In this document: positions 3,119-60,716 of the stretch, one piece after another
Numbering within the stretch: position 1 is the first letter of the stretch
Layout of the letters: each line of letters starts with the position of its first letter
From: Craspedostauros australis
Taxonomy: Eukaryota
Assembly (NCBI GenBank): GCA_030167865.1
Contig: JALAGF010003123.1
Location: 1 to 61,898, forward strand
DNA length: 61,898 nucleotides
Reading direction: 5' to 3'
The notes under the pieces: model-generated
What the model was told of the DNA's origin: nothing
The model's input: only the letters and a program-made list of their open reading frames with translations
The model's database searches: none
Position numbers and translations under genes: made by a program

Positions 3119-3483
3119 TGTTTGTCTTGGTGCTCAGTGAGTTACGGGTTGGCTTAAGAGACCTTGTTTGTCAAACGGTCGCTCGATACTGGTGACGATC
3201 TTGTTTTCGCCTCTTTGTTGTTTGCGATTGTGGTTGTTGTTGGTGGTCTTGTTGGTCCTTGTCGAATCTTGTTGTTGTGTGATGAGTATTGAAGCGAAAG
3301 TGGGTGTCAAGTGATGTTGAAAGGATCGTATGAACGGATTATGTCTGCTTTGAGTTGCCCAAAGGTTTTCGACTCCTTGCTGTTGTTCCTTCGTGTTTTT
3401 GTTTTTGCGTTTCGCTGCTGCTTCGCTGCTTTGGTCTGTGCGTGGTTTGGGTTTTTGACGCAATCACACGAAGGTGGTTGTGT

Positions 3484-35205: not shown

Positions 35206-35979
35206 CTAGAGTTCGAAGTCGAAGATGTCGTCATCTGTCTCCCCCTGGAACTCGTCGTCGTAGTCTTGGTTGTCGAAGCTCTGCACCAACGCCTCGTTGC
35301 CAAAGTCCTCGAACGCGGCAATGTCGCAGTCGCGTGCCTGCTCCAAGGCTTCGCCGACCACGGAGATGAGCTGCCCGCGTGAGAGGTTGCTTCCTGGTGT
35401 GGAGGCTCCACCGTACAACGACGAGGACACCGGAGGCGAGAGGAGATGGCGCTCTGCCTTGGCGGATGGACGTGCCTGCTTGAGCCTGGCGTTTTGGATG
35501 CGTTCGTACATGCGCCACGTGTTGCGGTTGTACTCTTGCTCCAAGGTCTTGTGGGAGCAGGCCATGAGGGCTGGTATCCTCTCGGCTTCTCGGCTCACGT
35601 TGAGGTAGTCGTCTGCCGATCGCGAGACTCGGCCGTGCATGAATCGCGGCGAGTGGGCGGGACTAACAATCATCACGCTTTCTTCGCCATTCAACGAGAA
35701 GTCGTCGTCGCCGTGCGACGCGAATTGCTGCGGCTTGTGTGGCATCTGTTGGTCGATGGAGCGTGGTGGTTCTTGTTGTTGCTGGTGATGTTGTTGAGTG
35801 CTGATGGTACTGTGATCGGCAACAGAGGATGGGTAAGCAAAGCTCGATGCAAGCATGTGAGTCAGTGCCGATTCCGGTCGTGATTGGAAGTCCATGCTGG
35901 TGGCCTTGGTGGACGTTGCTGAGTTGGATGGTTCAGCGAGCATGCTGGAGGAGAGCAGTGATAGTGGTGATGGTCTCAT
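35206..35979 (-). CDS. Small diatom-type hypothetical protein (Y..TWRMYERI motif; C-terminal DDDIFDFEL)
   Basis: The ORF extends to 36162, but the upstream part is CA-rich and UTR-like. It contains a helix 'YNRNTWRMYERIQNAR' and an acidic-hydrophobic C-terminus. Confidence 0.75.
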   Translation of the reverse strand: MRPSPLSLLSSSMLAEPSNSATSTKATSMDFQSRPESALTHMLASSFAYPSSVADHSTISTQQHHQQQQEPPRSIDQQMPHKPQQFASHGDDDFSLNGEESVMIVSPAHSPRFMHGRVSRSADDYLNVSREAERIPALMACSHKTLEQEYNRNTWRMYERIQNARLKQARPSAKAERHLLSPPVSSSLYGGASTPGSNLSRGQLISVVGEALEQARDCDIAAFEDFGNEALVQSFDNQDYDDEFQGETDDDIFDFEL

Positions 35980-41297: not shown

Positions 41298-44200
41298 TCA
41301 CCGCGACATGCGCCTCGCTGCTTCCTTGAAAATGGTGCTCAGATCATCGGACTCCAACCCCTCCAAGGGCAAGGTGGTGTTGACCCCCAGCACCGCCGTC
41401 TTCGATGGCAGTGTGGAAGCTCTGGAGATGTTCGACATCTTCGATGTGGAAAAGGATGTTTCCGTCGACGAGGATGAGGCACGGCTGCATGCGTCCCTCG
41501 AAAACTGCTCATCGGTCTCGTCCAGATCCAGTGTCATCTCGTGGATGGGAAGGTCCATCTGGACGCGCATCTCGGAATTTTTTGCCAAGCCGCTGGCTGT
41601 GCTGCTCCCGTTGCTGCTGGGTGAGGCGCGCCATTTGTTGTTGCCGCCGATGTTGGACATCTGGATGGTGCTGATGCTGTTCTCAAGCGGACTCATGCCG
41701 GAACCTTGACCTGGTCCAGAAGAAGGGGTGCTGGTTCCTCGATCGCTGCCCGTCCCGTTGCTCTCTATCATCCGATCGGACAACGGCTTCGTCTTGGGCG
41801 TTTGGAGATCATCGAGAGTGAAGCTCTCGAGCGAGAGCTTGGTTTCAAATGTGATGCTACTGGTCGTGCTCTGCGCATCAGTTCCGTCGTCGCCGGAGGT
41901 CACGGATGTACCGTCCCTGTTTTTGTCACCGCCGCGAGTGGCAGCCGGAGAGAAAGAAATGGAGTCGATCCGCTCAACTTCGATGATGTTGCCCCTCTCT
42001 CGTTTCTTGCCATCCGCCGTGCTGTTCTCTTGAATGCTGGGCATGGCCGATGAACGCGAGCTGGAACGGAATGATCCCGATGACTGCCGAATCAGACGGG
42101 ATCGTCTTGACCGTGTGGAGGAATCCATGTTGCGGTTGGCCACGGAAGCCTCGCGCAATGCGACGACCAGATCTGCAGAGAGCTGATTTCCAGTCATCTC
42201 CGCACATTCGCGCAGGATGATGTCGATTTCATCGTCCGTGTTCATCGCGTACGACAACGCCGTGCTTCGTGACAGAACGTAGCACAGCTCTCTGGGGACC
42301 TTCTCGGCGTAGGTTTTGCGTAAAAGGCACAGAATGCTCGGTCCCAGTTGTTTGTTGGGGGCGAGCGATTGGGGAGTTGAGGGGGCGCTTCCTTGCCCAC
42401 CCATCATCGGTGGCGGTGGCGGTGGGGCCTGTTCCTGTGTTTGCCCCCCTGAAGCTACGCTCCCCTTGGCCATCGATGACTCCTGATGTCGGTCGCCATT
42501 GCTGCCCGCCGTCCATTGCAGCTCCGATGACTTCGGATCTTCGAGCTCTGAGTCAGTCGATATCTCAGAGAAGTGACCGGACGATTCTCGATTGTACGCA
42601 AACGCGATGCGCGAGGATCGTTTGCCATCGTCATTATCCAGCCTCACTTTCTCCATGCCATTGATCACGTTGACATTGGCATTCGCACCGGCAGTGTCTT
42701 GGTTGGCAGGTTCCTGCACATTTAAGGTATCATTCAATGGCGCAAGGACATCCGAGGGGAGTATCCCGCTGCTGCTGCCGCCGCCACCTTCGCCACCGGG
42801 CTGGTTGGCACGATCGTCCATGTACTGAAGCTCCAGAGCTTTCTCTCGTTCAGGGATGGACCATGGCTGCTGATCGGCCTTGGGCCCCTTCGGCGATAAC
42901 GAAAAGGAGGCGAATGTGGAAGCGGAGTAGTCGAGCTCAGAATCCGATGTCTCCAACTCTCCGACGGTCCCCGCTGCACCGTCCGGGCCTGTGTTGACTT
43001 GGCCCAGTGTCTTGACGAAGTCTTCGGGAACGTCGCCGTTCAGTTCCTTGGCCTCGTCGATGATGTACTGCATCCGAAGCTCATCGTCATCGAGGTCCGG
43101 TTCTGAAATGTAGCTTTCGCTAAGGGCGCTGAAATACCCGCTTGCATTTCCGTAAGAGATCGTGTCTTCGCCGGATCGGTGCTGCTTCTTGAAGTGCTCC
43201 GACAGCGTGAGACCACGGAAGCTCCGAGCTGCAATGCGGAATGATCTTGTAAGTTTCGTGGGCATGTCGATACCCAACGAACCGGATGCCTTCGCCATGG
43301 TGCTTGTGATCATCGTTTCGTGCAGGCAGTTGATATCATGTTCCCCGTCTTTCTGAGTAGCGCTTCGCAGGGCTCCCGCGATTTCACCTGATATCTTTTG
43401 GCCGTATTCATGCTCTGCAGTTGTGATGAACGCGAGAAAGCTCTCATCATATTCTGCCGTGGTTTGATCTTGGTGTTGATCTTGATTTGACAGAGTTTGC
43501 GGATCGATGTTCTTGGTTTCGCTGGGTGGAGTGAGCGTTTCCTTTGCGCCTTCTTCCGTTGGTTCAGCCTCTACTTTCACTGCGTCGGATGACGCTGATG
43601 CTGGTGCTGGTGCGCTCGCTGGTGCCGCCGATGCTGCGTGTGATGTTGCTGCAGAGGCTGAGGACGCGGAGCTGAGCTTGTTGCAAAGTGCAGAGACGAT
43701 GTCGTTGGAGTCCGACACCAGGCTCTTCCCATCATTGTCTTCCTCATCCAAGTTCAACGCTTCCATCATCAATGATGACAAACCGGACATGTTCATGGCA
43801 TCGGTCTCAGAGAGCAGCGTGTGGATAGACGCGCGCTTGAGAGCCTCGATGAGCTCATTCGGTAGTTCCATGCCGAACTGTTCCTGCGTTTCGGCAATGA
43901 TTGCATCGAGCTCGGCGCTGGCGTTCTTCGAATCGTGCATCTCATCCCCGCTTGTGCTGTCAGCGGGGCCCGACAACGACTCCAGCTCTGGAAGTTCCGG
44001 CGATGATGATCCTCGCATCTCGTCAGCAGTTGGTATGCGCGGCGCACCTTCAATGCTGAATGTGCCGGGCGCATATTCGCCATCAATCTTCATATTGGCG
44101 TCACCATCGGCGTCTGCAGTCTCGTTACCGGCAGCCTGCTTGTCATCATTTTCGTACATCACAGACTCAACGCCTGCGGCAATATCAGCTTGTACCGATG

Positions 44201-47200
44201 ATTCTGCCGGTGCTGTCCTGTCCCCTCCTTGGTCCGCTCTTTCACCTTCATTCGGGACGTCATTCACGAGAGCACCCAGCCGAGCCTTGGACGCATCCAT
44301 GACATCCTGCATGTCCTTCTCCTTCAGCGAGCCGCCGTCAGTTGCCAACGTGCATGCTGTCATCGGCGATAGCTCCAATGAGAACCTGCCGCTCTCGGTT
44401 CTCTCCATCAACTCCGAACGCGTTGGTGTGGAGACCACCCGGATGGGCGCCCCGTTCTGCTTTGGAGATTTGTACGACGGAGGTGGGGGTGGCGAGCTGG
44501 TCTTCAGGGTGCCACCGTTCGTTTGTGGCCTGGGAGATTCAAGGTACGCAGCCTTGTACATCTCGCTCAGATCATCTGTCTTGGTTCCACTGGCAACGTT
44601 CAGCAGCATGTCGTCGGCCCGCCCCGTTGCCTTGGCAATCTTCGCATTGATGTTGAGATACCGCTTGGTGCGTTTGGGTGTGACCAATGCGGCAGCGTTA
44701 TACCGTTGAACGGGGCTCGCCGGTATCTTCTGCTCTTTCGTGTCTTGGGGCTCGAAGCCCATCGCAAAATCGGTCTGGTGGATTGGCTCTGTTTGGGATC
44801 TCTGCATTTTCGGTGGGAACGTTGAATTCCTGTCGCTGGTTGCTGCCTGCTTGCCGCCAACGATCACCTTGCTCTCGGTCAAGTGTTGTGCTGCTTCACG
44901 TATGGCTGCCATGAGATCCGCTGGGATCGAACGTCGGAGCATTGCCACTGATTTCAGGATGAGGACCTCGATCCTATCGGATGTCAAAAACGTCCCGAAT
45001 GGTTGCCCGGCACCATTGACGTTGCTGTTGCTAGACTCGTTGGAATCCAACTCCAGGCGACGCACAGATTTGTCCTTCGCCCACGATGCCTTTTTAAGGG
45101 CATCTGCGACGTTGGCGGGAATTGGGAAACTGTATCGATTCTGTGCTTCGGTCAGCAGCAAATCGAGCTCCATGGCCTGCGGGGATGGTGCAGATGGTGC
45201 TGCGTTCAGCGATTTGGATGACGCCTGTTTTGTTGAGTTATGATACGATCCAGTTGGGAAGGAATTGGTGGATTCTTCGTGCGACTCGGAAACCTCCATC
45301 AGGCTTTCCAAATTCTGCTTTCTCTCGGGCTTGGCGGTGGAGTGCTTGGAATCTCCACTCTTCCTAGTCTTCTTCTTCGTCGTGCTGTGATCGAGTGTGG
45401 CAACTGCGTTTTGGAAGAGATCCTTGAGATCATCGGTGGGAGGACCGAAGTCTGCAAGGCTGTTCATGAACCTTTCGGCAGAGGCGCGCTTCTTGCGTTC
45501 CAGTTTGCCTGAGCTCTTTTTGCCGTTGCCATTGCCATTGCCGTTACCGTGGCTACTGCTATTGTTGCTGTTGTTGGATTCTGCTTTCTTCCGCAACGCC
45601 TTCATTTCGCTGGCTGATACTCGTGTGTTGGTGAGCTTATCCCAGCTCGTGTCAGATTTTGCGGAATGGATGGAAAGATCCAGCGCATCCATGAGCTTGT
45701 CGCGTCGCGACGATGAAGGCTTACGTGGTCTCCTCATGTTGGGTATCCTTCGGGTACTGCTGTGGGCGAGTGGATCTGCATCTTCCATCAATTTGCCCAT
45801 TTTCGAGATCGATGCAGGCTTCTGTGGAACGTCGTTGTCTTGTTTGGGCAAGTATCCCGGCGGGGCCGCATTCATCGGAATGTTCGGATCCTCGTTGTAC
45901 GCATTCGACGCCGCGTTGGCGTCGTCGCTCTCGGTTCCCATTAATTTCTGTTTCGACATCCCTGGCGGAAGTGCAACATTCCTCATCGCCTCCAACAAGT
46001 CAGCAGGCATCGGCCCACCGAAGAGTTGCTCGGCATTTTGGATGACCCCGTCGTCATGCAGAGCACGCACCACCATCAACGATGTCATACCGCCATTGTT
46101 GGAACCAAGGCAGGCCTCTCGCAATGATTCCACCATGTTCTCGGGAATTTCCAAACCATAAGTGGCTTCCGTGTCGGTTACGATGTCTTCAAACGCAGCC
46201 TCGCCAGCGCTATCATCGACCGGCTGCATGGTGCGGGCTCCTCGTTCGGATTTTTCCGTCTCTGCGGCCTTCTTCAACAGAACATCCAGATCATCGGTGA
46301 CGATCTTGGTGAAGGCGGCAAGCGACGTGAGGTCGTCGCTCTTTGTGGCGCGAAGCCGTCCACGCCGCGGGATGTCCCGCGCAGCAGCTGCCAAGTTTTC
46401 GAGATTTCCGCTCTTGGATGGACCAAGTCGACGGAATGGGGTCGATGTGAAGTCCATCGATGCATGCCCATCTCGTTGTATGAATCGGTTGCTGCTGCTG
46501 GTGACCTTCGGGAAGGCCCGCAGACTGGAGTGCCCTGTTGATGGAGGTCGGCGTTCGTTGAGTCTGCTCAAGTCCTTTTCCAGCTGACTTGGTTTCTCAG
46601 ACTTTGGTGGTGAGAAGACACCGCCAATGTCCAACGACAACTCGCTCTCCCTGGACACTCTCGACAGATCATGGCTGCGAGCATCATCTGCCTCTGGATA
46701 ATGATGACTTCCCCTGGATGATGGCAATCCAGATTCTTGGCTTCGGGTTTCTTCCCGTTCCAACCTCTGCTGCTGCTGCTGCTGCTGCTGCTTCTGTCTT
46801 TGCTGCTGTCTTCCGTTTGGTCCTGTCTGGACTTCGGTTGGATTTTCGATTATATCTGTCAACGGGAATGAAATCTTGATCTCGGTCGACTGTTGGCTGA
46901 GGGACCGTGACAAGCCGTTGCCACCACCACCTCCTTGTTGCTGCTGCTGCTGCTGTCCCTCCTCCTTCGATGGCTTCTGATCCTGCTGTCCGAGAGCCAA
47001 GGTGTGAGTACCGTCCACAACAGACACATCGATCGGCGGTTGGTTGTCGTCCATCGTATCCACCGTAAAATCGTCATCCAAACGCAAGGACTGGCTTGCA
47101 CTCAAGCCGCTGGATTTGGAGAGCATCATGAGCGCAGCATTCAGCTCGGGCGACATCTCGTCCTCCATGTTTTGTTCTGCTGCCATTTCTGGCGAAATCT

Positions 47201-50200
47201 CTGGTTCGTAGCGGATGGAGTGTAACGAAGTGGAATGGACCACGGGCACGTCCGAGACTTGTGGCATGATTCCACGCAAGTCAGGCTGAGGTGGGATTTC
47301 CAAGAGATTTGGAGCGTCGAAATTGTACGGATTTGAATGCATGATGGTACCGGCCAGACGCGTTGGTCGGGGCGGTGATGGGTCGGCCCCAACATCATCA
47401 CCCTGCTGCGTTTCTGCAACATTCTCCTTGCCTCTGTCTGCAGACTTGGATGGCGACGTCGCTGGCAATAGCTTGTCTTCGGGGCTTGCCGGCGACATGC
47501 TCCCCAGAATGCCTGGCGTTTCCGCGATCTTGTCCAAGGTTGGACCTCTGTGGTTGCTTGTGCTGATGGTGCCGATACTCTCGCCTCCCTTGCTGCTGTC
47601 GAAGCCCGGGAAGATGTTGTGAAGACTCAACGATGCATCCGCAGAGCTTGTCTTGGTCTCCGCAAGGCTCGTTGCTTCGCTCACCTCTTCTCTCGGCGTT
47701 TGTACGGACCCAGCGCGAGAGCTGCGATGACGCTCGTGACTGTTCCCCCGCTTGGCAAAGTAGGCTGAGATGGTGGGTGATTTCGAGTGGTCCTTCAGTG
47801 CGCTGGACCTGGATGATCCTTCGTTTGTGTTAGTAGCGGTAGTCTCACCACCGCTCTCTTCGATGATTTCTCCATGAAGTTCGGAACTACTGCTGGTGCT
47901 GCCGGTCGTGCTATCACCATCGCTGGCATTGCCGTTGGTCATGTACGAATCTGCCTTGGAGCTGCTGTGGTACGATCCCGTCGATGTGGACATTGGGTCG
48001 TGGCCAGAGTCGTTGCCCTCCAACCGCGATTGCAGCACAAACAACGCCCTTCGCAACGAGATGAGGGTGTTCTGCTCAAAGACGTCACCGTACAGTTGCT
48101 GCGCCTCTCGCAGCATGCGATCAACCTCCTTGAAGTCGATTCGCATGCCGCCGCCCCCGTCATCGAGCTCGTACAGAAGGCTGTCAAATTTCCCCCCTGC
48201 ATCACGCAAGCTCTCAACCAAGGACTGCGGCAACGCGTGATGCAGCTGCCGTTCGGCTTGCTCGATTAGCGCATCGAAGAACTCTTGCTTCAACCGCACC
48301 TTCAGTGTCTCCATCATCGCCAGATCTTTCTGGGTGGATTCCAAGCGCCGCTGCGCAGCAGTGCGAAGCGCGGACACTGCGCTGAGCGGGATGGACCGAT
48401 TGCAAGCCCGTTCGACTTCGTCGATGAGCTTGTAATTCACGATAGCTTCAGCGACTGTGTGGAAGAGTTGCGGCGCATCGGATGCCGATGCCATGCGCGC
48501 ATGCTGCGATGGCGTCAAGCTGCTCATCTCCGTGGCAAGTCTCAGCGACACGTCACGCAGGGCGATGAACAGATCACGTGGCAAGGATTGATCGAGATGA
48601 TGCTCGGCTTCTCGCACGATGGCAATGAGATCCTCTTCCGCTGCCAGGATCTTTGCCGTGGCAATCAAGGGGTCGACGTCCTCCGGTCCATGGAAGGATT
48701 CATTGAGCACGTGCTTTTGAACGGTCAGCGCTGGAGGGGCGCCGCCGTCCGAAAAGCGGCGATTCATCGTCTGTGTGCGCTGTGAGTGGTTCGATAACAT
48801 GAGGTCACTGGCAGATTTGTGCCCATCCATCATCAGGTTGTCCGTGCGATCGGCGTCGTAAAATTCTGCCGCTGCCTTGCAGATGTCATCCAGATTGTCC
48901 ATTTCGTGACGCACGGTGTCCGCAAAGCTGCGCAACGAGTCATGGAATGAAATTGAGTTGAAGGAGTTGTTCCCTTGCTCCAGCGTTGGAAGCATAGACA
49001 TGGTGGCGCGTTTGCTAGGCCGCCTATGCTGCGATTTCTTCTTCTGGGTGAGACTGAGCAATCCCCAGCTGGAGGCCGATGCTGAATTGTCACCGCGCGA
49101 CGCCGTGCTGGCTCTGCTCTGGACCTGATACGAGTACTCCGCGCCGGTGAGCGAGGAGTTACGGGTCTGCGGCGTCGCATCGGATGCGTCGTCATCATAA
49201 TCATACTCGCCGCTGTTCGTGTCGATCCTGTCGGAACTAAGTCTTCGGCTTCTCCGACGGCCGGAACGGTGGTTTCCGCTCCTGTTGCCGTTCCTCCGAC
49301 CTTGGGATGCCTCCGTGCGCTTGTCAACGAAGCGCAACCGTGCCTCCAAGTCAAGTTTCTGAGACGTCGACGATTCGTCGTCGGTGTAGCTCTGTCGAGA
49401 TGATGTTGGTGGCGATTCTGACGGCGGTGGTGGTGGCGACAGTGCGTGCATCTGCATCTGCATGTGTTGTTGTTGTTGTTGTTGCTCATGCTGGCCTTGC
49501 TGCAGCTGTTGGGATTGTTGCTCGCGGATGGACTCCAGCTGACGTGTTAGGTGTTGCACTTGCAATGTCAGTTCCCTCTCCCGTTCCGTCTCCACGTGTG
49601 GCACTTGACTGGACTGGTCGCCGTCTGTGTCGATGGATAGATTATCGCCGGACAGTTCCGAGCCGACCGACGACGACTTCTGCAAGAATCGACGTCGCTC
49701 TTGGTCCTTCTGCGATCTAGAGATGGAGGACCCGCCTGAATTCACGCTGCTGGTGGATGTTAACCGCAGCTGCTGCTTATTTCTTGGCCGTGAGCCGACA
49801 CTGTCGGCGGCTGTCGTGCCTGTTGTGTTGAGATCGTTGGGGGGCCCCTTCGTGTTGGTGGAGAGAGGGAGGAAGTAGTCTGTCGCGTCATGCCTGTCGG
49901 CGTCGCTATTTTCATCGCTGTCCATACCACTCTCATCTCCCTCAGCAGCGGCGCGTCCGTTGCTGGTTTGAGATACCGCGGGTGCCATCTGGCTCAGTTT
50001 GCGTTCCAGTTGTTGGATCTTGATCATGTGTGCCTGATTCTCTTCGAAGAGAAGATCGTTCTGCTGTTGCAAAATTCCGACCTTGCCCTCCAGATATCTG
50101 GTGAGTACTGTGGGTTTCTCCGGGTCCATTCCCATCATTCCAACTGCTTCGTCTTCGCTGCTGATGCCACTGCCGTTGGCGTCGCTGCCACTATCATCGT

Positions 50201-52472
50201 CACCCTGGCGTCGTTCTTCGCCATTCTCGAAGACTGCATCTGTCTGTGCTACTGTTCCTGCTACTGCTGCCGCTCCTGTTTGCGATGACGTGGATGACGC
50301 AGGCAATTGTGTTGGGGTATGAGTTGTTGTGGGGCATGGTGTTGATTCGATGGTCGTGGTGGGACGGCGGTGGTGAGAATCGATGATGATGTCGGATGCA
50401 GTGTGGATGGGCGCTGGCGGTATGTGACCATAATCACGCAAAATCATACCTAATTGTAAGGACTCCTTGCGCAAGTCGGAGTTTTCGTCCTGAAGATCCA
50501 GCAGCTGTCCCGATTGGAACTGCTGCGCTTCCATGGCCTGCGACAGGAGAGTGTTGCGATCCATCATGGCCGATACCAGGCGTTCCAACTGCACTTCGCG
50601 GTTGGACTTGGTGCCGTTGTGGTTGTGGCTGTTATGATGTTGTTGTTGCTGCTGCTGATTGTGCGAATGGCTGTGTGATTGATGTTGGTGAAGGTGGTTG
50701 TTGTGCGAAAAAGAAGCCGCCAAACTGCCGCTGCTGCTGTTGTTGTTGGTGTCGTGATAATAGTTCATACCATTGTTGTTGCTGTTGTTGTTGTTGTTGA
50801 CAGACGTCAATGAATTGTGCAGGTTGGTGTCGGTGGGTGTCGTAGGCAGTTCGATGGACGTAACTTCACCAGTCATGCTGATTCCGCTTGCAGATGCTCG
50901 GCGCATGGATCGGGTGTGATTGGAAGTTGATTTGGCAGTTGCGTTCGTTGCCACGACGTGCTTTTTGTTGTGATGTGGTGGCGGTGGTGTCTGCAGGCTG
51001 GACAGGCTGTTGTCATGGTCGTACTCCTGCATGGTGGATCGCAGCAAGTCTTCAATCTTGGCGGTCAAGGCCGCGACGGAGGTGTTTGTATCAGTCTGCA
51101 GCAGCGGCATGTGCAACGAAGCCGCCGTGGCCATCGTGGAACCGGAGGATATGGTGCTCTCATCCATGCTGTTCGCACGCGACCGGTTGCCGCGTTCCGC
51201 GCTGTACTTGAGAGCAAACCTGAGCATGGCCTCTTGCGTGGATTGGTGCAGGTACTTGGAGGCGTGCTTGAGGATCCACAGGACGTCCTTGGATGCGGCT
51301 TCGTTGGGCTGTATCCTTTGCGGGATGTCGACCAACGCGTTGGGGAATGCATGGATCATGCGCAGCACGATCGCCGGCGTCGTATTCCATTGCACCGCCA
51401 TCCACAGCGGGTACTGGCGCGTGTGGTCCATCTGCGAGCACGCCTGCGGGTAGTATGTTACGAGATAGAGAATGAGGCGTTCCAAGTCCTCCCGCAGCGC
51501 GATGCCCTTCGGTATGAAGTGCAGATAGTTGCATGCCAGATGGATGGGCAGCTGACGGAACGTGAAGTTGGCGGATCGTTCCAGCAGCCGCGCTGACGGC
51601 GACGCCGATGTCCTGGTCGGCGACGCCACGACGGCAGGCACGGGATCGCTGACGCCACAGGAGCATTCGACGGTCGTGACGGGCCATGATATCCTGCGGT
51701 CAGGCGGGTGCATGGCTTGACCGATGCTCGCAGCGCCATCGCTGCTGACATGATGCGAGAATGGGTAGCAGCACAGCCACGTGGATGCTTCCGAGGGACA
51801 CCGTCGCAGGCGTTTGGCGGCCGATGCGAACTTTTGCTGGATGAGCAGCTTGCACAGCACGGTGGGGTTGCGAGCGATGTCCACCTCCTCCTGCACCTCT
51901 GCTTCTTCCTGTCTCCGCATCTTCGGTTGTTTCCTCGACTGGGCCTTTGCCTTTGTGTTTGCGTTTGCGTTGGAGTGTGATTGTGGTGAGTGCCCACCAT
52001 TGGAGGCATGGTTGCCACTGCCACTGCCACTGCCGCTGCTCATCGCCGAGTGTTGGAGTTGGGAGGAATTGATCGAAGACGAAGAGTCATGGTCCATGGT
52101 ATTCGTCTTGGTGGTGGCCCTCCTATTGACTGGCCGCCTGCTTGGCTGCGTCTGCGCCGCTGGTGTTGCCTTGGCTGTGGTTGGGATTGAAGTGCCGCTA
52201 TCACCTTTGCGCAGTGGCGTCGATGTTGCGCTTTGGGGCAGAGGAGCTATTCTCGCTGCTAGCAAAGCCGTCGGAAGCGCCGCGAGAGGCTCGACTTGCA
52301 GCAACAGCGGCGCTTCGCTTGCGGATGGCAGTGTCAGCGAGGAGTGGCCTTCGCGTGGGCGCTGCTGTTGTTGCTTGTTGCTCCCGTGCTTCGCTTCGTT
52401 TCGATTCCCAGGTGCGCCAGTGTTGATGTCAAGGCTGGTGCGGCTGATGATCGGCGAAGACAGCGGAGTCAT
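41298..52472 (-). CDS. Giant (up to 3724 aa) single-ORF protein: N-terminal ankyrin-like domain, coiled coils, ~15 dispersed helix-hairpin repeats in disordered S-rich linkers
   Basis: 11.2-kb uninterrupted ORF. Ankyrin-like 'RQLPIHLAC...YPQACSQMD...YPLWMAV...AFPNAL' at about 51330-51865 and coiled coils at about 49500-50600. The true start could be 52097 (MDHDSS). Confidence 0.9.
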   Translation of the reverse strand: MTPLSSPIISRTSLDINTGAPGNRNEAKHGSNKQQQQRPREGHSSLTLPSASEAPLLLQVEPLAALPTALLAARIAPLPQSATSTPLRKGDSGTSIPTTAKATPAAQTQPSRRPVNRRATTKTNTMDHDSSSSINSSQLQHSAMSSGSGSGSGNHASNGGHSPQSHSNANANTKAKAQSRKQPKMRRQEEAEVQEEVDIARNPTVLCKLLIQQKFASAAKRLRRCPSEASTWLCCYPFSHHVSSDGAASIGQAMHPPDRRISWPVTTVECSCGVSDPVPAVVASPTRTSASPSARLLERSANFTFRQLPIHLACNYLHFIPKGIALREDLERLILYLVTYYPQACSQMDHTRQYPLWMAVQWNTTPAIVLRMIHAFPNALVDIPQRIQPNEAASKDVLWILKHASKYLHQSTQEAMLRFALKYSAERGNRSRANSMDESTISSGSTMATAASLHMPLLQTDTNTSVAALTAKIEDLLRSTMQEYDHDNSLSSLQTPPPPHHNKKHVVATNATAKSTSNHTRSMRRASASGISMTGEVTSIELPTTPTDTNLHNSLTSVNNNNNSNNNGMNYYHDTNNNSSSGSLAASFSHNNHLHQHQSHSHSHNQQQQQQHHNSHNHNGTKSNREVQLERLVSAMMDRNTLLSQAMEAQQFQSGQLLDLQDENSDLRKESLQLGMILRDYGHIPPAPIHTASDIIIDSHHRRPTTTIESTPCPTTTHTPTQLPASSTSSQTGAAAVAGTVAQTDAVFENGEERRQGDDDSGSDANGSGISSEDEAVGMMGMDPEKPTVLTRYLEGKVGILQQQNDLLFEENQAHMIKIQQLERKLSQMAPAVSQTSNGRAAAEGDESGMDSDENSDADRHDATDYFLPLSTNTKGPPNDLNTTGTTAADSVGSRPRNKQQLRLTSTSSVNSGGSSISRSQKDQERRRFLQKSSSVGSELSGDNLSIDTDGDQSSQVPHVETERERELTLQVQHLTRQLESIREQQSQQLQQGQHEQQQQQQHMQMQMHALSPPPPPSESPPTSSRQSYTDDESSTSQKLDLEARLRFVDKRTEASQGRRNGNRSGNHRSGRRRSRRLSSDRIDTNSGEYDYDDDASDATPQTRNSSLTGAEYSYQVQSRASTASRGDNSASASSWGLLSLTQKKKSQHRRPSKRATMSMLPTLEQGNNSFNSISFHDSLRSFADTVRHEMDNLDDICKAAAEFYDADRTDNLMMDGHKSASDLMLSNHSQRTQTMNRRFSDGGAPPALTVQKHVLNESFHGPEDVDPLIATAKILAAEEDLIAIVREAEHHLDQSLPRDLFIALRDVSLRLATEMSSLTPSQHARMASASDAPQLFHTVAEAIVNYKLIDEVERACNRSIPLSAVSALRTAAQRRLESTQKDLAMMETLKVRLKQEFFDALIEQAERQLHHALPQSLVESLRDAGGKFDSLLYELDDGGGGMRIDFKEVDRMLREAQQLYGDVFEQNTLISLRRALFVLQSRLEGNDSGHDPMSTSTGSYHSSSKADSYMTNGNASDGDSTTGSTSSSSELHGEIIEESGGETTATNTNEGSSRSSALKDHSKSPTISAYFAKRGNSHERHRSSRAGSVQTPREEVSEATSLAETKTSSADASLSLHNIFPGFDSSKGGESIGTISTSNHRGPTLDKIAETPGILGSMSPASPEDKLLPATSPSKSADRGKENVAETQQGDDVGADPSPPRPTRLAGTIMHSNPYNFDAPNLLEIPPQPDLRGIMPQVSDVPVVHSTSLHSIRYEPEISPEMAAEQNMEDEMSPELNAALMMLSKSSGLSASQSLRLDDDFTVDTMDDNQPPIDVSVVDGTHTLALGQQDQKPSKEEGQQQQQQQGGGGGNGLSRSLSQQSTEIKISFPLTDIIENPTEVQTGPNGRQQQRQKQQQQQQQQRLEREETRSQESGLPSSRGSHHYPEADDARSHDLSRVSRESELSLDIGGVFSPPKSEKPSQLEKDLSRLNERRPPSTGHSSLRAFPKVTSSSNRFIQRDGHASMDFTSTPFRRLGPSKSGNLENLAAAARDIPRRGRLRATKSDDLTSLAAFTKIVTDDLDVLLKKAAETEKSERGARTMQPVDDSAGEAAFEDIVTDTEATYGLEIPENMVESLREACLGSNNGGMTSLMVVRALHDDGVIQNAEQLFGGPMPADLLEAMRNVALPPGMSKQKLMGTESDDANAASNAYNEDPNIPMNAAPPGYLPKQDNDVPQKPASISKMGKLMEDADPLAHSSTRRIPNMRRPRKPSSSRRDKLMDALDLSIHSAKSDTSWDKLTNTRVSASEMKALRKKAESNNSNNSSSHGNGNGNGNGKKSSGKLERKKRASAERFMNSLADFGPPTDDLKDLFQNAVATLDHSTTKKKTRKSGDSKHSTAKPERKQNLESLMEVSESHEESTNSFPTGSYHNSTKQASSKSLNAAPSAPSPQAMELDLLLTEAQNRYSFPIPANVADALKKASWAKDKSVRRLELDSNESSNSNVNGAGQPFGTFLTSDRIEVLILKSVAMLRRSIPADLMAAIREAAQHLTESKVIVGGKQAATSDRNSTFPPKMQRSQTEPIHQTDFAMGFEPQDTKEQKIPASPVQRYNAAALVTPKRTKRYLNINAKIAKATGRADDMLLNVASGTKTDDLSEMYKAAYLESPRPQTNGGTLKTSSPPPPPSYKSPKQNGAPIRVVSTPTRSELMERTESGRFSLELSPMTACTLATDGGSLKEKDMQDVMDASKARLGALVNDVPNEGERADQGGDRTAPAESSVQADIAAGVESVMYENDDKQAAGNETADADGDANMKIDGEYAPGTFSIEGAPRIPTADEMRGSSSPELPELESLSGPADSTSGDEMHDSKNASAELDAIIAETQEQFGMELPNELIEALKRASIHTLLSETDAMNMSGLSSLMMEALNLDEEDNDGKSLVSDSNDIVSALCNKLSSASSASAATSHAASAAPASAPAPASASSDAVKVEAEPTEEGAKETLTPPSETKNIDPQTLSNQDQHQDQTTAEYDESFLAFITTAEHEYGQKISGEIAGALRSATQKDGEHDINCLHETMITSTMAKASGSLGIDMPTKLTRSFRIAARSFRGLTLSEHFKKQHRSGEDTISYGNASGYFSALSESYISEPDLDDDELRMQYIIDEAKELNGDVPEDFVKTLGQVNTGPDGAAGTVGELETSDSELDYSASTFASFSLSPKGPKADQQPWSIPEREKALELQYMDDRANQPGGEGGGGSSSGILPSDVLAPLNDTLNVQEPANQDTAGANANVNVINGMEKVRLDNDDGKRSSRIAFAYNRESSGHFSEISTDSELEDPKSSELQWTAGSNGDRHQESSMAKGSVASGGQTQEQAPPPPPPMMGGQGSAPSTPQSLAPNKQLGPSILCLLRKTYAEKVPRELCYVLSRSTALSYAMNTDDEIDIILRECAEMTGNQLSADLVVALREASVANRNMDSSTRSRRSRLIRQSSGSFRSSSRSSAMPSIQENSTADGKKRERGNIIEVERIDSISFSPAATRGGDKNRDGTSVTSGDDGTDAQSTTSSITFETKLSLESFTLDDLQTPKTKPLSDRMIESNGTGSDRGTSTPSSGPGQGSGMSPLENSISTIQMSNIGGNNKWRASPSSNGSSTASGLAKNSEMRVQMDLPIHEMTLDLDETDEQFSRDACSRASSSSTETSFSTSKMSNISRASTLPSKTAVLGVNTTLPLEGLESDDLSTIFKEAARRMSR

Positions 52473-55124: not shown

Positions 55125-55975
55125 TGTGATTTGATGTACGGCCAAATGGGAAGCTGGTCAGAGTATGTTCTTGCAATGGTCAATCTGCGGTGCAGCGCAA
55201 ACGTCGAGGATAGTGGGCGGAGCGGTCGTTGCCTGTTCTTGTGCCTCTCGCATTGTGGGCTTGAGTGCATCCCTCCGCCTCTCTGGCGTGTCGAACATGT
55301 TTGTCGCAGCAACACCAAAGATCGGTTTTACCGAATCCATGATCAAGAAATTGGACCAGTCGTGAATACGAAGATGAAACAGAATGGAATTTGGAATTTC
55401 GACTTGTCCAGAATGGAATAGAATCAAATAGAAGCAACAGTTTCGCTAACAACTCTTGGTTTCATTGTCCCTCTGTCGAAGGACAGACGAATACAGAAGC
55501 CTTTTGATTTGCGGACGATCAGATTGGAATCGATTGACTCGTTGGCTTCGCTTGGACTCCTCTTGATTCGTTTGGTTGGCTTCGCGCAATTTGCTTGTAC
55601 ACGCGCTCTTTGTGGTTAGTTGTTGGTTGTGCTGGTTGTGGGTGGAGTTTTGTGTGGTCGTCTTGGCTTCTTGCCTCCCTTGTCGTTTTGCTTGGCTGGG
55701 ATTGGATTGGATTTTGTGGTGCGCGTTGTGAGTGGATGCGAAGCCAAAAACATGTGCAACTCCCGCGTTGCGCCAAGAAGGAGAGAGAAGCAGCAGCACG
55801 AAGAGGAGAGCAGCGTCACCACAGCCGCAAAAATAGCGCAGCGCAGAGACATTCGGTGGAAGCGCCGCGCAGCCGACAGCATCCTCGACAAAACAAGAGT
55901 GACCAACGATCCAACAACCGACTTCGTCTCCTCCTCTTGCTTCTTGTTTGTCAATTCCTTCACCCACCACTCCTG

Positions 55976-56000
55976 CATCCATCCATCCATCCATCCATCC
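55976..56000. repeat. (CATC)n tetranucleotide microsatellite
   Basis: CATCCATCCATCC... seen directly; a similar run occurs at about 33986-34004. Confidence 0.9.
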
Positions 56001-56626
56001 GCATCAGTGTCTGTATCAGTATCTGCATCCGCCTCGATCACAACCACTCCACGGACGTCGAATAGCGCACAGCCACACAGCCACCCGTCCACATTCACAC
56101 TCACACTCACATCCAAATCAAGATACTACACTCCACCTCCTGATACCGACTCTGCACACACACTGACGTTGGATCTAATCGTGCAGCACCAAGAACAGCA
56201 GCACAGACAAACGAACGAGACACGGCAGCCTGACCGGGAAGATCCACGTCTTCGCCAACCCTCCATTTCTCCCATCCCATCCCTCTCTCTCTCTCGACCA
56301 ACAGAGCACACTTGCTGGCACAGAGATCTATCTTCGTCCAACAAACTCATTTCGGCTTCTGGTGACTCTGACCGATCTCCAACTCATTCCATTCGCAAAA
56401 AAACAACACCAGCAAAAGCAACAGAAGCAACAAAAGCAACGGTCATTACCAAGGACACATATACTGCACTATACTTTGTGATCAACAGACCATCGGCACA
56501 CTTCTCCACTCTCCACTCTCCGCACTACAATAGTAAGGCACAACACACCACCCTCTACGACACCCACAGCGACACCACCAGAGACTCAATTAAGTTCCAT
56601 TGCCACTCCAATACAAAGTCTGCACC

Positions 56627-58468
56627 ATGAGCTCCCCAACGCCACCTGCCGACGCGGCCGCAGCGCCGCCCTCGACCACTCCGCCTGCAGCAGCTCCAGC
56701 AGCACCGCAACCACTCAACATCGCCCTCCGCTTCGTCCGAGCCTACTACAACAGCCTCATTTCCGACCCCAAGTCCATCTCCCGATACTACCAACCAAAG
56801 GCTGCCTACCTTTCCCACGGAGACGGCAGCGGCCAGAGCGAGCAATCCGACTTCCAATCCTACGGCATCGAAACCTCCGATCGGTGGGCTGCTGGCGACC
56901 GCACCATCAAGATCGAGTTCGGGCAGGGTGCCATCGATGCCCAACCAAGCGTCGACGGGGGCATCCTCGTTGTCGTCACCGGCCATGTTTGCTACTTCAA
57001 GTCCAAGCAGCACGGCGTCGATCAGCGCAAGGCTTTCGTGCACACCTTCTTCCTCGGCTTGCCATCTCCCACCTCCAAGTCCTTCTGCGTCTTCAACGAC
57101 ATCCTGCGTTTCCTGAAGCCCATCGAGGTTGCGCCAGAGGCCAACGGGGAGTCCAACCAGGTCGTCCCACCACCAGCTGCCGACGCGACCGAACAACCAG
57201 CGGCACCAGCACCGGCCGTCGAGGATACCGCTGAAGTGGCTGCACCAAAGATTGCAAAGGAAGCCACCGAGCCCGATGCCAAGCCTGCACCAACCGCCGA
57301 TGCCGAGCCAGCAGCCGCCAAGATCGATGCGCCGAAGGCGGATGCCAAAGATGTTCCAGCTGAAGAAGAGGCACCAGGCGGCGGGGTCGAAGAGAGCAAG
57401 GAAGTTGAGCCCGAAGATGCCGATACACCAGCCAAGAGCAGCAGCGCGGACACCGGTGCTGCGCCAGATGCCAAGCCAGTAGACGAAGTCGCGAAAATCG
57501 ATGCGGCAGCACCGGCATCAGAACCAAGCAAAAAGCCTGCCGATGCCAAGGCCGACAAGCCCACCGCGGATGCTCCCGCCAAGGACACCACCCGAAACGG
57601 ATCTGCAGAACCAAAGGAGAAGGGAGGCGGAAAGGGTCGCAAGGGCAGAAACGGCCGTGGCAAGTCTCCAGGAACAGCCAAGGCCACCATCGACCAGCAA
57701 CAGCAACAACAGCAGCAGCAACAACAGCAGCAACAACCACCAAAGCCTGCTCCAAAGGCTGCCCCAAGCACCTGGGCAAGTCTGGTCGCATCCAATGCCT
57801 CTTCAACACCCATGGCCGCCGCGCCAAGCCCCATCAAGACCAAGCCACCAACCCCAGCAAGCGACAAGTCCAAGGCGAAGCCACCACCAACAACCGACTC
57901 ATCCAATGATGCCAAGGGACCGTCCAAGTCGAGCAACGCCGGTTCCTCCGGCGGCAGAAAAGATTCCGAGCCTGGCAGCAACAAAGGCAGCAACAGCGGC
58001 GGCCCCAAGAGTTCGGAGCGCCGCTCGGACAGAGATCGCCCACGACGTGACCCAGATTGCACGCTTGTCATCAAGAAAATCCCCGACGGCACCAAGGAGT
58101 CCGAAATCATCGCCCTCTTCGAACCTTTCGCCAAGCAAACCAACGCAAAGATTGTCGGTACGACCGTTGCCAACCACCGTGCCCTCGCCTTTGTGGACTA
58201 CGACGCTGTTCAGCCAGTCATGGCAGCCATCGAGGCTCATCGCAAGGAACCTCTGCAGCTGAATGGACGCGTCCTCGAGGTCGACCAGAAGACGGCCGAG
58301 CAACGCGCACGACGCAGCACCAAGGGAGGCTTCCGCAACGAATCACCAAGCGGCGGGCGATACCAAGGTGGTGGCGGTGGCCGCCAGAGTCGCCGTGATA
58401 ACCGCAACCGAGGCGACAGAGGCGGGCGTGGCAACCGAGGTGACCGAAGCGATCGAAGTGGCAGATAG
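56627..58468 (+). CDS. G3BP: G3BP/Rasputin-like NTF2-RRM-RGG stress-granule protein
   Basis: NTF2 'FVRAYY...IDAQPSVDGGILVVVTG...FVHTFFL...VFNDILRF', acidic/Pro linker, 'TWAS' motif, RRM 'LVIKKIP...AFVDY...LNGRVLEVDQK', and RGG tail. Confidence 0.9.
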   Translation: MSSPTPPADAAAAPPSTTPPAAAPAAPQPLNIALRFVRAYYNSLISDPKSISRYYQPKAAYLSHGDGSGQSEQSDFQSYGIETSDRWAAGDRTIKIEFGQGAIDAQPSVDGGILVVVTGHVCYFKSKQHGVDQRKAFVHTFFLGLPSPTSKSFCVFNDILRFLKPIEVAPEANGESNQVVPPPAADATEQPAAPAPAVEDTAEVAAPKIAKEATEPDAKPAPTADAEPAAAKIDAPKADAKDVPAEEEAPGGGVEESKEVEPEDADTPAKSSSADTGAAPDAKPVDEVAKIDAAAPASEPSKKPADAKADKPTADAPAKDTTRNGSAEPKEKGGGKGRKGRNGRGKSPGTAKATIDQQQQQQQQQQQQQQPPKPAPKAAPSTWASLVASNASSTPMAAAPSPIKTKPPTPASDKSKAKPPPTTDSSNDAKGPSKSSNAGSSGGRKDSEPGSNKGSNSGGPKSSERRSDRDRPRRDPDCTLVIKKIPDGTKESEIIALFEPFAKQTNAKIVGTTVANHRALAFVDYDAVQPVMAAIEAHRKEPLQLNGRVLEVDQKTAEQRARRSTKGGFRNESPSGGRYQGGGGGRQSRRDNRNRGDRGGRGNRGDRSDRSGR

Positions 58469-59624
58469 GTCCTTCTTTGTTGAGTTGACGAGAGGAAAGC
58501 GGGCTGATCATCTCCCATGTGACACACTCCATCATTCGACTGCTCTTCGCACTTTGCAACCTGTTAAAGCGATCGCAGTTGCCTCCAGCGGGCCACATGA
58601 TCATCGCAACCAACCAACCAACGTGAACTGCCATACATCTCTGTTCACACACCTCTTTTCAACCCGAGAAATGCGTACTGCCAAAAGAACTGAGACCCGG
58701 CCCAACCATGACGCGAACAACTGGAGACAACCATACTCTCCTGCAACACAAGAAGTGGGAGGAATCAACCAGTCTGGAATGTAGTGTACATCGCCTCACC
58801 CATCTCAGACTGATTCCCAGTCTACAGGGGACGTTGTACATGCAACCTCGGCATTCCATCCACCACTCGTCAACAAAGCAACAACACAACCAACAGCAAC
58901 AACAACATGAAATAACTCAACATCCTCATCCACAACACCCAGTGCCACTTTGGTGGCATTCGGGGGCATCTATCTACCCACCATACTCTGCTCTCCTGGA
59001 CTCATTCATCTTCTATGCATCTCAGTTCATCTGGGCATTGACTTGATTCGAATTCGGTGGAGCTCCAATCCAACACATATCAACATCCATGTCCCACTTA
59101 CCAATACCACATCATACCATACATACCAACAAGTATCCACGTGCACAGCATCAGTGCGTATCACACGAAAACAAGGGTAGACAAACACCGAGCCATCCAT
59201 CCAAACATACCAACCATCACTCACTCACTCAAACACAACCCTGGAGCAACGTAGACCTCCAGCCACATTTTCATCGCATGGCTACTATTGTAACAAATAT
59301 AGCATAGAAAGTGCGATTCGCTAGCCATTGTCTACCACAGTAACCTATCGGTGTTTGATGTTGTTGCGACCGCTTGTATCGAGAGCCACGCCCTTTACGA
59401 CAACCCCTGCCCAAGCCTCATGCCACCATCTCGTTCTTCTTGTTTCGTTTTGGCTGGTCCTCGTGTTCACACTCTTTCGTATCTCCCCAATCGTGCGTCA
59501 ATTTTTCGGAACGAGAACGAATCCAAGACATCTCCCGCCACTCGACGTCGACAATGTCTCCATCGCACTCTGAAGCAACGACAACGCCGGACATGACGCA
59601 GTGGACCCGAAACGAATCTGCAAG

Positions 59625-60716
59625 ATGGACAACAACCATGGCGAAGGACAAGGCAGCGGCCATGAGGATACGCAGGATCCACCGACTACAACGAAAACGC
59701 TGCAACAGCAACATGACATGCCATTGCCCAATGACCAACAAATCGAAATCTGGACGCGGCAACAACTCGAAATCGCAAAGCAGGTCATTGTCCTCAACGA
59801 TCGCGAAAGCAGCGATGATGGCGATGACGTGAAGCACATCGATGCTCCTTTTCCGAACTTCCGATACCTCTCCACAGGCAACAGCAAAAGCAACGACGCG
59901 GAAAGGTACTTCGGTGGCGTCGATGTCAGCTTCCCCGAGAATGACGATGATGATGCGGTTGCCGTCTACGTCATTCTCGATGCCGCAACCAACACCGTAG
60001 TGCATCAAGATCAGATGTACTTTGCATTGCAAATTCCCTACATTCCATCCTTTCTGGCAATGCGCGAAATCGAGCCATTGGTCGAGTTAGTGCAGCGCTC
60101 GCAATCGCCGTATCGTCCGTCTGTCATCCTGGTGGATGGCAATGGGATCTTCCATCAACGGCATGCTGGCATTGCGACGTGCTTGGGCATTCGAACGCAA
60201 ATCCCAACCATCGGGATTGGGAAGACATTGTATCACGTCGGTGGATGGACGAAGGATGTCATGACGCACATGATGGATCGCATGTTTCAGTCTTTGGATG
60301 CCCAAGACACGAACGCACAAGGCAAAGAGCACGAGATGATCTTGTTGCGCAAAGATGCTTGGATTCCAGACATAGATCAGGATGCTGCACAGCCACGCGT
60401 CGATCGTTGCGACGTTCTGAAACGACTCGCTGTGATGGGCATTGCCGTCCCGATGGGAGTCCATGCATCGTCCGGCTTCGCGTCCCAGTTTCCAACTGTG
60501 GCGTGCGCGTTGGTGGGACATGGTGGCAGGACAGGCAAACGCGGCAAGAATGTTGTGGGCACGAAGAATCCCATCTATGTCAGTGTGGGGCACAGGATTT
60601 CATTGCGAAGAGCCATCCAGATCGCATGTCGTCTCAGTTTGTCGAGGATACCGGAACCTGTGCGACAGGCCGACTTGGTTGGGCGGCAGCTGTTGCGTGC
60701 TCGGAACATGAAGTGA
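59625..60716 (+). CDS. ENDOV: Endonuclease V (inosine-specific nuclease)
   Basis: GGVDVSF, PYIP wedge 'PYIPSFLAMRE', LVDGNGIFH, TIGIGK, PIYVSVGH and RIPEPVRQAD. Confidence 0.95.
   Translation: MDNNHGEGQGSGHEDTQDPPTTTKTLQQQHDMPLPNDQQIEIWTRQQLEIAKQVIVLNDRESSDDGDDVKHIDAPFPNFRYLSTGNSKSNDAERYFGGVDVSFPENDDDDAVAVYVILDAATNTVVHQDQMYFALQIPYIPSFLAMREIEPLVELVQRSQSPYRPSVILVDGNGIFHQRHAGIATCLGIRTQIPTIGIGKTLYHVGGWTKDVMTHMMDRMFQSLDAQDTNAQGKEHEMILLRKDAWIPDIDQDAAQPRVDRCDVLKRLAVMGIAVPMGVHASSGFASQFPTVACALVGHGGRTGKRGKNVVGTKNPIYVSVGHRISLRRAIQIACRLSLSRIPEPVRQADLVGRQLLRARNMK

Follow-up and report, generated by a model that had tools for sequence, protein, structure and literature searches.

A recurring helical hairpin module of about 30 residues in a giant predicted protein of Craspedostauros australis

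Large lineage-specific proteins without recognisable domains are numerous in diatom-type genomes, and one contig of Craspedostauros australis (JALAGF010003123.1, GenBank assembly GCA_030167865.1) raises the question of whether such a protein can nevertheless be built from a defined repeated module. The window, i.e., the whole analysed stretch of 61,898 nucleotides (nt), contains on its minus strand one uninterrupted open reading frame (ORF; positions 41298-52472, open over 11,175 nt) that encodes a giant protein of 3724 amino acids (aa), here called P0001, in which a first-pass annotation had noticed about 15 copies of an unrecognised helix-hairpin repeat of about 28 aa. With respect to this repeat it has to be asked whether it is real, whether it occurs in other proteins, what it might fold into and whether it belongs to a family already described. 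The repeat in P0001 is real, and on balance it probably represents an undescribed hairpin module forming small helical domains on a multivalent scaffold.

All 12 well-formed copies quoted in the annotation were confirmed, with a pattern search placing each peptide where it had been reported and with a unit of ~30 aa. A hidden Markov model (HMM) that was seeded with ten copies and iterated inside P0001 settled on 12 clear copies located between nt 42141 and 48638 of the minus strand. The first four form a cluster comprising copy 1 (aa 1279-1310; 48543-48638), copy 2 (aa 1343-1374; 48351-48446), copy 3 (aa 1396-1427; 48192-48287) and copy 4 (aa 1446-1477; 48042-48137), the last being followed by a conserved FVLQSRLE. 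Copies 5 (aa 2091-2122; 46107-46202) and 6 (aa 2137-2168; 45969-46064) make up a pair, and these six copies are supported by profile searches as well as by structural models (see below). Further downstream in the protein are copy 7 (aa 2433-2464; 45081-45176), copy 8 (aa 2498-2529; 44886-44981), copy 9 (aa 2852-2883; 43824-43919), copy 10 (aa 3009-3040; 43353-43448), copy 11 (aa 3052-3083; 43224-43319) and copy 12 (aa 3413-3444; 42141-42236).

Since the copies taken as seeds necessarily fit a model built from them, three non-circular tests were used. Leave-one-out HMMs recovered eight of the ten left-out copies at 5.5-24.1 bits, whereas the best match among 200 local shuffles of P0001 scored 2.6-5.2 bits, while the copy at aa 2498 tied with the shuffles and that at aa 3052 was missed. 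An HMM made from the window only found 14 copies with a total of 196.3 bits in the independent ortholog P0002, where 200 shuffles of P0002 reached a maximum of 3.8 bits. De novo iteration over the family and an equal-sized decoy set, starting from the lone copy at aa 2852-2883, yielded 138 real versus 0 decoy domains at an independent E-value <= 1e-3 and recovered ten copies in P0001, the copies at aa 2498, 3052, 3131 and 3385 not being reached. Copies 7, 10 and 12 were each found by leave-one-out models, the iterated HMM and the de novo iteration, copy 12 in addition being supported by the orthologs. The weaker copy 8 was found by the iterated HMM, and so was copy 11, the weakest of the twelve, for which orthologous copies exist. 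Copy 9 is the best conserved (24.1 bits in leave-one-out, ortholog identity 0.60) and at the same time stands alone, all other copies having a neighbour at most 80 aa away.

Two variant hairpins complete the set to 12 clear plus 2 variant copies. The first (aa ~3131-3165; 42978-43082; MQYIIDEAKELNGDVPEDFVKTL) corresponds to a degenerate copy that had been suspected at ~43005-43075; it is recognisable in five of the seven full-length orthologs described below and is not picked up by profiles that exclude it. The second (aa ~3381-3412, referred to as ~3385; 42237-42332; LLRKTYAEKVP..., LLRKTYAEKVPRELCYVLSRS) is conserved in all seven, with an identity of 0.52, and pairs with copy 12. Another degenerate copy proposed at 47120-47190 (aa ~1761) is not confirmed: no profile finds it, and it aligns to no ortholog hairpin. 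The arrangement mostly in pairs holds, given that 13 of the 14 copies in P0001 have a neighbour within 80 aa from start to start, with spacings of 39-80 aa inside clusters and of ~157-644 aa between them; family-wide this is the case for 115 of 159 copies, the modal spacing being 40-60 residues. The absence of an obvious repeat at the level of DNA likewise stands, since nothing was found in the gene beyond weak matches of 25-41 nt and a CTG trinucleotide run. This run (14 copies, 46767-46808) is translated into poly-Gln within one of the linkers and is the sole tandem DNA repeat of the gene.

In order to find relatives, 1,835,955,588 representative proteins were screened at E <= 1e-3 with a profile built from the 14 copies of the window, and this search, which had been proposed as a check, returned 26 proteins, 13 of them at <= 1e-10 and six at <= 1e-30. 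Of these, 24 are relatives that share recognisable islands with P0001. The two remaining matches, P0015, made of EF-hands, and P0016, made of HYR-like domains, were treated as spurious matches that a profile of such short length can produce. P0015 (365 aa) obtains its 55.6 bits via the helices between its EF-hands, which read W-P-E-I-E-x-F-I-A-E-M-E-x-Q-Y-G-E-K-M-P. The source names of the relatives are "hypothetical protein" and, on one fragment, an automatic label.

Two architectures can be distinguished among the relatives. The first consists of giant orthologs, with full-length members of 2332-3062 aa as well as fragments, which run collinear with P0001 between a Q-L-P-[LI]-H-x-A-C domain near the N-terminus and a motif at the C-terminus. 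The second is shorter (261-1538 aa) and dense in hairpins; all six of its members (P0004, P0008, P0013, P0018, P0021 and P0022) carry hairpin copies, the longer ones (P0004, P0008 and P0022) also have the ankyrin-like head described below, and four of the six (P0008, P0013, P0018 and P0021) end with the C-terminal D-D-L motif. This shorter architecture is probably a paralogous family. A word-based homolog search retrieved one ortholog among proteins of near length and none among shorter proteins, and a query with architecture 2 returned only itself.

Across the 159 copies in 25 proteins, among which the 14 copies of P0001 match by construction, the consensus is E-L-D-x-I-I-x-E-A-E-x-x-Y-G-x-x-[LI]-P-x-[ED]-L-V-x-A-L-R-x-A-S. 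Accordingly, the unit starts with an amphipathic, mostly acidic helix (E-L-D-x-I-I-x-E-A-E-x-x-Y) that is stopped by Gly, followed by a loop of 4-5 residues (G-x-x-[LI]-P) and a Pro-initiated helix 2 (P-x-[ED]-L-V-x-A-L-R-x-A-S). The best conserved positions are L25 (79%), G14 (77%), P18, A24 and A28 (75% each), R26 (67%, or 85% R/K with the 18% Lys) and S29 (66%).

Conservation in the orthologs is concentrated in the hairpins. The mean identity to P0001 across the seven full-length orthologs is 0.40 inside copies versus 0.18 outside, and in the C-terminal two thirds of P0001 the majority of the conserved islands are hairpin copies. In P0002 the best matches are collinear for 13 of the 14 copies, with identities of 0.31-0.80 versus 0.22 between paralogous copies, so that, as judged by alignment, each copy is kept at its own position in the orthologs. 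Within pairs, the leading and the trailing hairpins do not separate into two classes by sequence (p = 0.12, 0.29 and 0.73 by permutation in three proteins), and a pair as the unit of duplication is therefore unsupported. Because of this the single hairpin is taken as the duplicated unit, and the sequences indicate that the module arose by its ancient duplication before the divergence of these species. A search of the open-access literature by peptide strings of the family and by keywords found no description of the repeat. By these comparisons, the ~30-residue module is lineage-restricted and previously undescribed.

As to the structure of the repeat, AlphaFold2 (AF2) was run on shallow alignments of 9 and 12 rows. 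The four-copy cluster (aa 1262-1492, 231 residues) was modelled with a predicted local distance difference test score (pLDDT) of 81.2 and a predicted template modelling score (pTM) of 0.59, being all-helical except for two 3-residue strands, and each copy consists of a helix, a 5-residue loop and a second helix. For the pair at aa 2079-2177 (99 residues) a pLDDT of 82.8 and a pTM of 0.70 were obtained, with five helices and no strands. Every modelled copy is thus a helix-loop-helix, in agreement with the helix hairpin that had been foreseen. The pairs had been imagined as four-helix bundles. A compact helical domain is indeed predicted for the pair, and likewise for the four-copy cluster, whereas the number of helices in the pair model is five and not four, the fifth being the conserved linker between the two hairpins; a four-helix bundle would be one reading of pTM and secondary structure. 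In the 12 aligned sequences of pair 5/6 the residues D-T-E-x-T-Y-G of copy 5, L-H, P, L, A, R and L-P-x-G are invariant, L-H lying between copies 5 and 6. The chain between the copies differs in composition from the copies themselves, with 69% versus 52% disorder-promoting residues, 20% versus 34% hydrophobic residues and 20% versus 11% Ser plus Thr, which is in line with the long disordered linkers suggested from the beginning.

Foldseek comparisons of both models with solved structures, also proposed at the outset, gave no match at E <= 1e-3 (best values 0.12 and 0.89). With VIA-align wide the pair reached a best Z score of 6.2 and the cluster one of 8.3, both in a range that according to the tool is common for helical models, and a query of the ESM Atlas with the four-hairpin region gave no usable match. 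The predicted fold would hence be one without a clear solved relative.

The hairpins are embedded in a protein with several other conserved parts. An ankyrin-like domain (RQLPIHLAC ...) at aa ~190-440 (51153-51905, minus strand, as are all features of P0001 given here) forms the N-terminal head. In a language-model look-up in the Atlas it adjoins ankyrin clusters with a feature score of 0.97 and 171 shared features, while a Pfam scan of this domain in P0001 gave no match, a phmmer search of it against PDB found nothing, and Ank_5 is reached below threshold in three of the 24 relatives (15.7-21.7 bits versus a cutoff of 27). The classified members of those ankyrin clusters are mostly Bacillariophyta. 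Of the earlier suggestion of an undescribed diatom domain, the first part is borne out, no Pfam family reaching its gathering cutoff in P0001, while the link of the family to diatoms is a lead provided solely by this look-up of the head. The orthologs begin shortly upstream of the ankyrin-like domain, and ORF residues ~1-190 (51906-52472), which are rich in Gln, Ser and Asn, have no counterpart in them; the start codon of P0001 is uncertain for this reason, and translation may in reality begin at an ATG further downstream.

In the N-terminal half, conservation is highest in the island MMGMDPEKPTVLTRYLEGKVG at aa 779-799 (50076-50138), with an identity of 0.76 to seven orthologs. It lies in a heptad-like region, and since relatives give weak coiled-coil Pfam matches at its position, this region is probably a coiled coil. 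At the other end, an Arg/Ser-rich island with dense R-x-x-S motifs (aa 3445-3482; 42027-42140; ...RSRRSRLIRQSSGSFRSSSRSS.MPSIQE) directly follows the last hairpin, and the identity to orthologs over aa 3425-3482 is 0.69.

Outside the hairpins there is a second motif, D-D-L-x-x-I-F-K-x-A-A (in the family D-[DN]-L-x-x-[ILM]-[FLY]-K-x-A-A), which is called LD-like here. Five instances are found in P0001, namely DNLDDICKAAA (aa 1192-1202; 48867-48899), an orphan helix-1 motif 87 aa upstream of the four-hairpin cluster, DDLDVLLKKAA (aa 2060-2070; 46263-46295), 31 aa upstream of pair 5/6, DDLKDLFQNAV (aa 2347-2357; 45402-45434), 86 aa upstream of pair 7/8, DDLSEMYKAAY (aa 2633-2643; 44544-44576), supported by motif search and ortholog conservation, and the C-terminal DDLSTIFKEAA (aa 3709-3719; 41316-41348), 15 aa from the stop and with an identity of 0.74. 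In the family the regular expression D-[DN]-L-x-x-[ILM]-[FLY]-x-x-x-A has 44 matches versus 0.58 expected (maximum of 3 in 100 shuffles), one of them, inside the ankyrin-like domain, being probably incidental. In 17 of the 25 family proteins the motif stands close to the C-terminus, at a distance of 13-20 aa, and of 43 occurrences 20 are followed by a hairpin no more than 120 aa further on. When column profiles are aligned, the best counterpart of the motif is the first helix of the hairpin, at a score reached by one of 500 column permutations; the LD-like motif looks like a hairpin lacking helix 2.

Taken together, these features suggest how P0001 might work. Adjacent hairpins and their short linker would pack into small, compact, all-helical domains, about seven of which, plus one lone hairpin, would be distributed along ~2200 residues of Ser/Thr-rich low-complexity chain C-terminal to the ankyrin-like domain and the coiled-coil-like segment. 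The protein would then be a dimerisable, head-anchored flexible chain with five free amphipathic helices, acting as a cytoplasmic multivalent scaffold on which the hairpin domains might serve as repeated docking knobs for proteins. Paxillin-type LD motifs dock on the FAT domain and other four-helix bundles; by analogy, the free helices might dock onto the hairpin domains, or else helix 1 and the free helices might be ligands of one and the same partner, e.g., the ankyrin-like head. Docking might be regulated at the end of helix 2, where R-x-A-S-hydrophobic is a candidate site for basophilic kinases, which prefer R-x-x-S-hydrophobic. The residue following R-x-A-S is V, L, A, I, F, M or W in 57 of 76 copies, and S29 is identical in 8/8 orthologs for the copies at aa 2433, 2852 and 3413; in the R-E-A-S-V ending of copy 12, R and S are identical in 8/8 and the next residue is V in 7/8. 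This ending, like the Arg/Ser-rich island behind the last hairpin, would fit regulation by a basophilic kinase, and the ending could equally reflect helix capping.

A number of observations weigh against this interpretation. A self-BLASTP of P0001 gave 0 off-diagonal high-scoring segment pairs at E <= 0.05; because the copies share a mean identity of just 22% (maximum 41%), the repeat is seen by profiles only and not in pairwise comparisons. Two to four of the 14 copies are weak, those at aa 2498 and 3052 failing the stricter tests and those at aa 3131 and 3385 depending on the alignment with orthologs. G-x-x-hydrophobic-P is a generic signal for the stop of one helix and the start of the next. 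The alignments behind the AF2 models are shallow, with the packing of hairpins judged from pTM and secondary structure, and S29 is not conserved in several copies and could simply be a helix C-cap.

Amongst the alternatives, the one that survives best assumes that the hairpins are molecular-recognition elements which fold on a partner, either the ankyrin-like domain of the same protein or an unrelated one, and would thus be ligands and not receptors. The units comprise just ~30 aa within a low-complexity chain, the resemblance of the LD-like motifs to helix 1 alone suggests helix 1 as the recognised part, copy 9 (aa 2852) is best conserved although it has no neighbour to pack against, and an ankyrin-like domain, ankyrin domains being classical peptide binders, is present in both architectures. 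However, AF2 packs the hairpins with confidence against each other in the pair as well as in the four-copy cluster, the conserved linkers within pairs such as L-H between copies 5 and 6 fit a folded unit, and most copies in the family have a close neighbour (115/159). We therefore regard this alternative as unlikely, if still deserving serious attention, and prefer the hairpins as small folded domains of a scaffold.

A more far-reaching version of the scaffold invokes self-complementary docking specific to diatom-like algae, in which the free helices, in cis or in trans, would insert into the hairpin bundles or exchange with their helix 1. Dimerised by its coiled coil, the giant protein might in this way build, along with the shorter paralog, a reversible cytoplasmic meshwork or condensate, with phosphorylation at the R-x-A-S-hydrophobic end of helix 2 as a switch, and the ankyrin-like head might anchor it at a membrane organelle, by analogy with what has been proposed for dAnk proteins and the silica deposition vesicle (see below). 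A complex prediction for pair 5/6 (aa 2087-2177) with an LD-like stretch (aa 2036-2080) scored 0.02 versus a mark of 0.34, the alignment being unused and the fold of the partner uncertain in this run, and speaks neither for nor against binding. As a whole this proposal is speculative and rather improbable.

Far less probable still is a derivation of the repeats from SUKH (SMI1/KNR4) domains, of which they would be degenerate relics or pieces, homologous to the N-terminal helix-loop-helix of that superfamily. SMI1_KNR4 (PF09346) is the sole Pfam family scoring in the whole of P0001 (E 5.4e-4, 21.0 bits; aa 1401-1429, with copy 3 as the source), five of the 24 relatives give similar partial matches (14.2-21.1 bits) and one more matches SUKH_5, and of the isolated copies two of 14 are matched (best 16.1 bits). 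There is also a likeness in sequence, consisting of a hydrophobic-acidic helix, G-x-x-L-P and a second helix. Yet all these matches stay below the gathering threshold of 25.4 bits and are confined to the start of the 125-position profile (positions 5-33 in P0001, never beyond position 57 in relatives), so that the resemblance was rightly called superficial and lacking the rest of the fold. SUKH-1 is moreover a single domain of ~125-150 aa, in contrast to a 30-aa unit present 14 times here, and its core is described as four helices and six strands (PMC3113570), whereas the present models are helical apart from the two short strands and each copy is followed not by a beta-sheet but by low-complexity chain. 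Membership in SUKH-1 thus fails on both tested features, the gathering score and the core fold, because nothing past the first helix-loop-helix was matched or predicted. The generic G-x-x-hydrophobic-P signal, of which the common G-x-x-L-P is a helix cap, may explain the resemblance. The same signal accounts for spurious matches to plant leucine-rich repeat receptor kinases (L-x-G-x-I-P), which, at E >= 0.0014 and together with other noise, were what the 14-copy profile met by chance among PDB sequences.

A spurious origin of the pattern, by chance or by composition, in a long low-complexity ORF that would be no real gene, as the blank self-BLAST and the lack of any Pfam domain at threshold in P0001 might suggest, is already refuted by the shuffle and decoy controls (leave-one-out, P0002 and de novo iteration), by orthologs 2332-3062 aa in length that run collinear with P0001 and are conserved mainly in the copies, and by an ORF that stays open over its entire length.

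With respect to the surroundings of the gene, ORFs of 166-400 aa on the plus strand overlap it in antisense (e.g., 43507-44709); their presence most likely follows from the compositional skew of the gene (AT skew of about -0.2 to -0.27). The neighbouring ORFs (770-40504 and 55752-60713) match ABC1 kinase, vacuolar sorting receptor (VSR/PA), EMP70, BTB and dehydroquinate synthase as well as RING, Nup84/107, PDZ, PRPP synthetase N, NTF2 plus RRM and endonuclease V. Since these are all ordinary eukaryotic families, the window is a gene-dense, intron-poor nuclear segment. Four of 17 scanned neighbour ORFs (8314-9756, 27180-29330, 35209-35979 and 55752-56627) are without a Pfam family at E <= 1e-3.

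What the family gains from this analysis is a defined, searchable module with a consensus and about 159 aligned copies, which is a candidate for a new Pfam-type entry, together with a linked second motif and a conserved architecture of ankyrin-like head, coiled coil, hairpin beads and C-terminal helix.

Several of these elements can be compared with known systems. The ankyrin theme is shared with dAnk1-3, ankyrin-repeat proteins at the valve silica deposition vesicle of diatoms, which according to the available passages of PMC9894196 are predicted to be cytosolic, are prevalent in diatoms and have been proposed as organisers of protein assemblies. This likeness, drawn by description alone, is a lead, and a hairpin repeat goes unmentioned in those passages (PMC9894196). 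If the ankyrin-like head did tie the family to dAnk-type machinery, the module could bear on the cytoplasmic organisation of silica morphogenesis.

The LD-like motifs resemble the LD motifs of paxillin: they are short amphipathic helices of acidic character around an L-D-x-[LI]-[LIF] core, are scattered in a disordered chain and occur in the same family as small helical bundles. In contrast to paxillin and FAT, motif and bundle belong here to a single chain, the motif being similar to the first helix of the very hairpins that would make up the bundle; structure searches with both models revealed no relation in sequence or fold to paxillin or FAT. EF-hands have a 12-residue Ca-binding loop instead of the 4-5 residues G-x-x-[LI]-P seen here, and P0001 has no Pfam match to them. 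In the TPR and HEAT solenoids a helix-turn-helix hairpin of ~30 aa is likewise multiplied in one protein. P0001 and its single copies have no Pfam match to TPR or HEAT at E <= 1, and the copies are non-contiguous and build no superhelix. The repeat is rated as a variant of the helical hairpin repeats, in which the hairpins are arranged as beads on a string.

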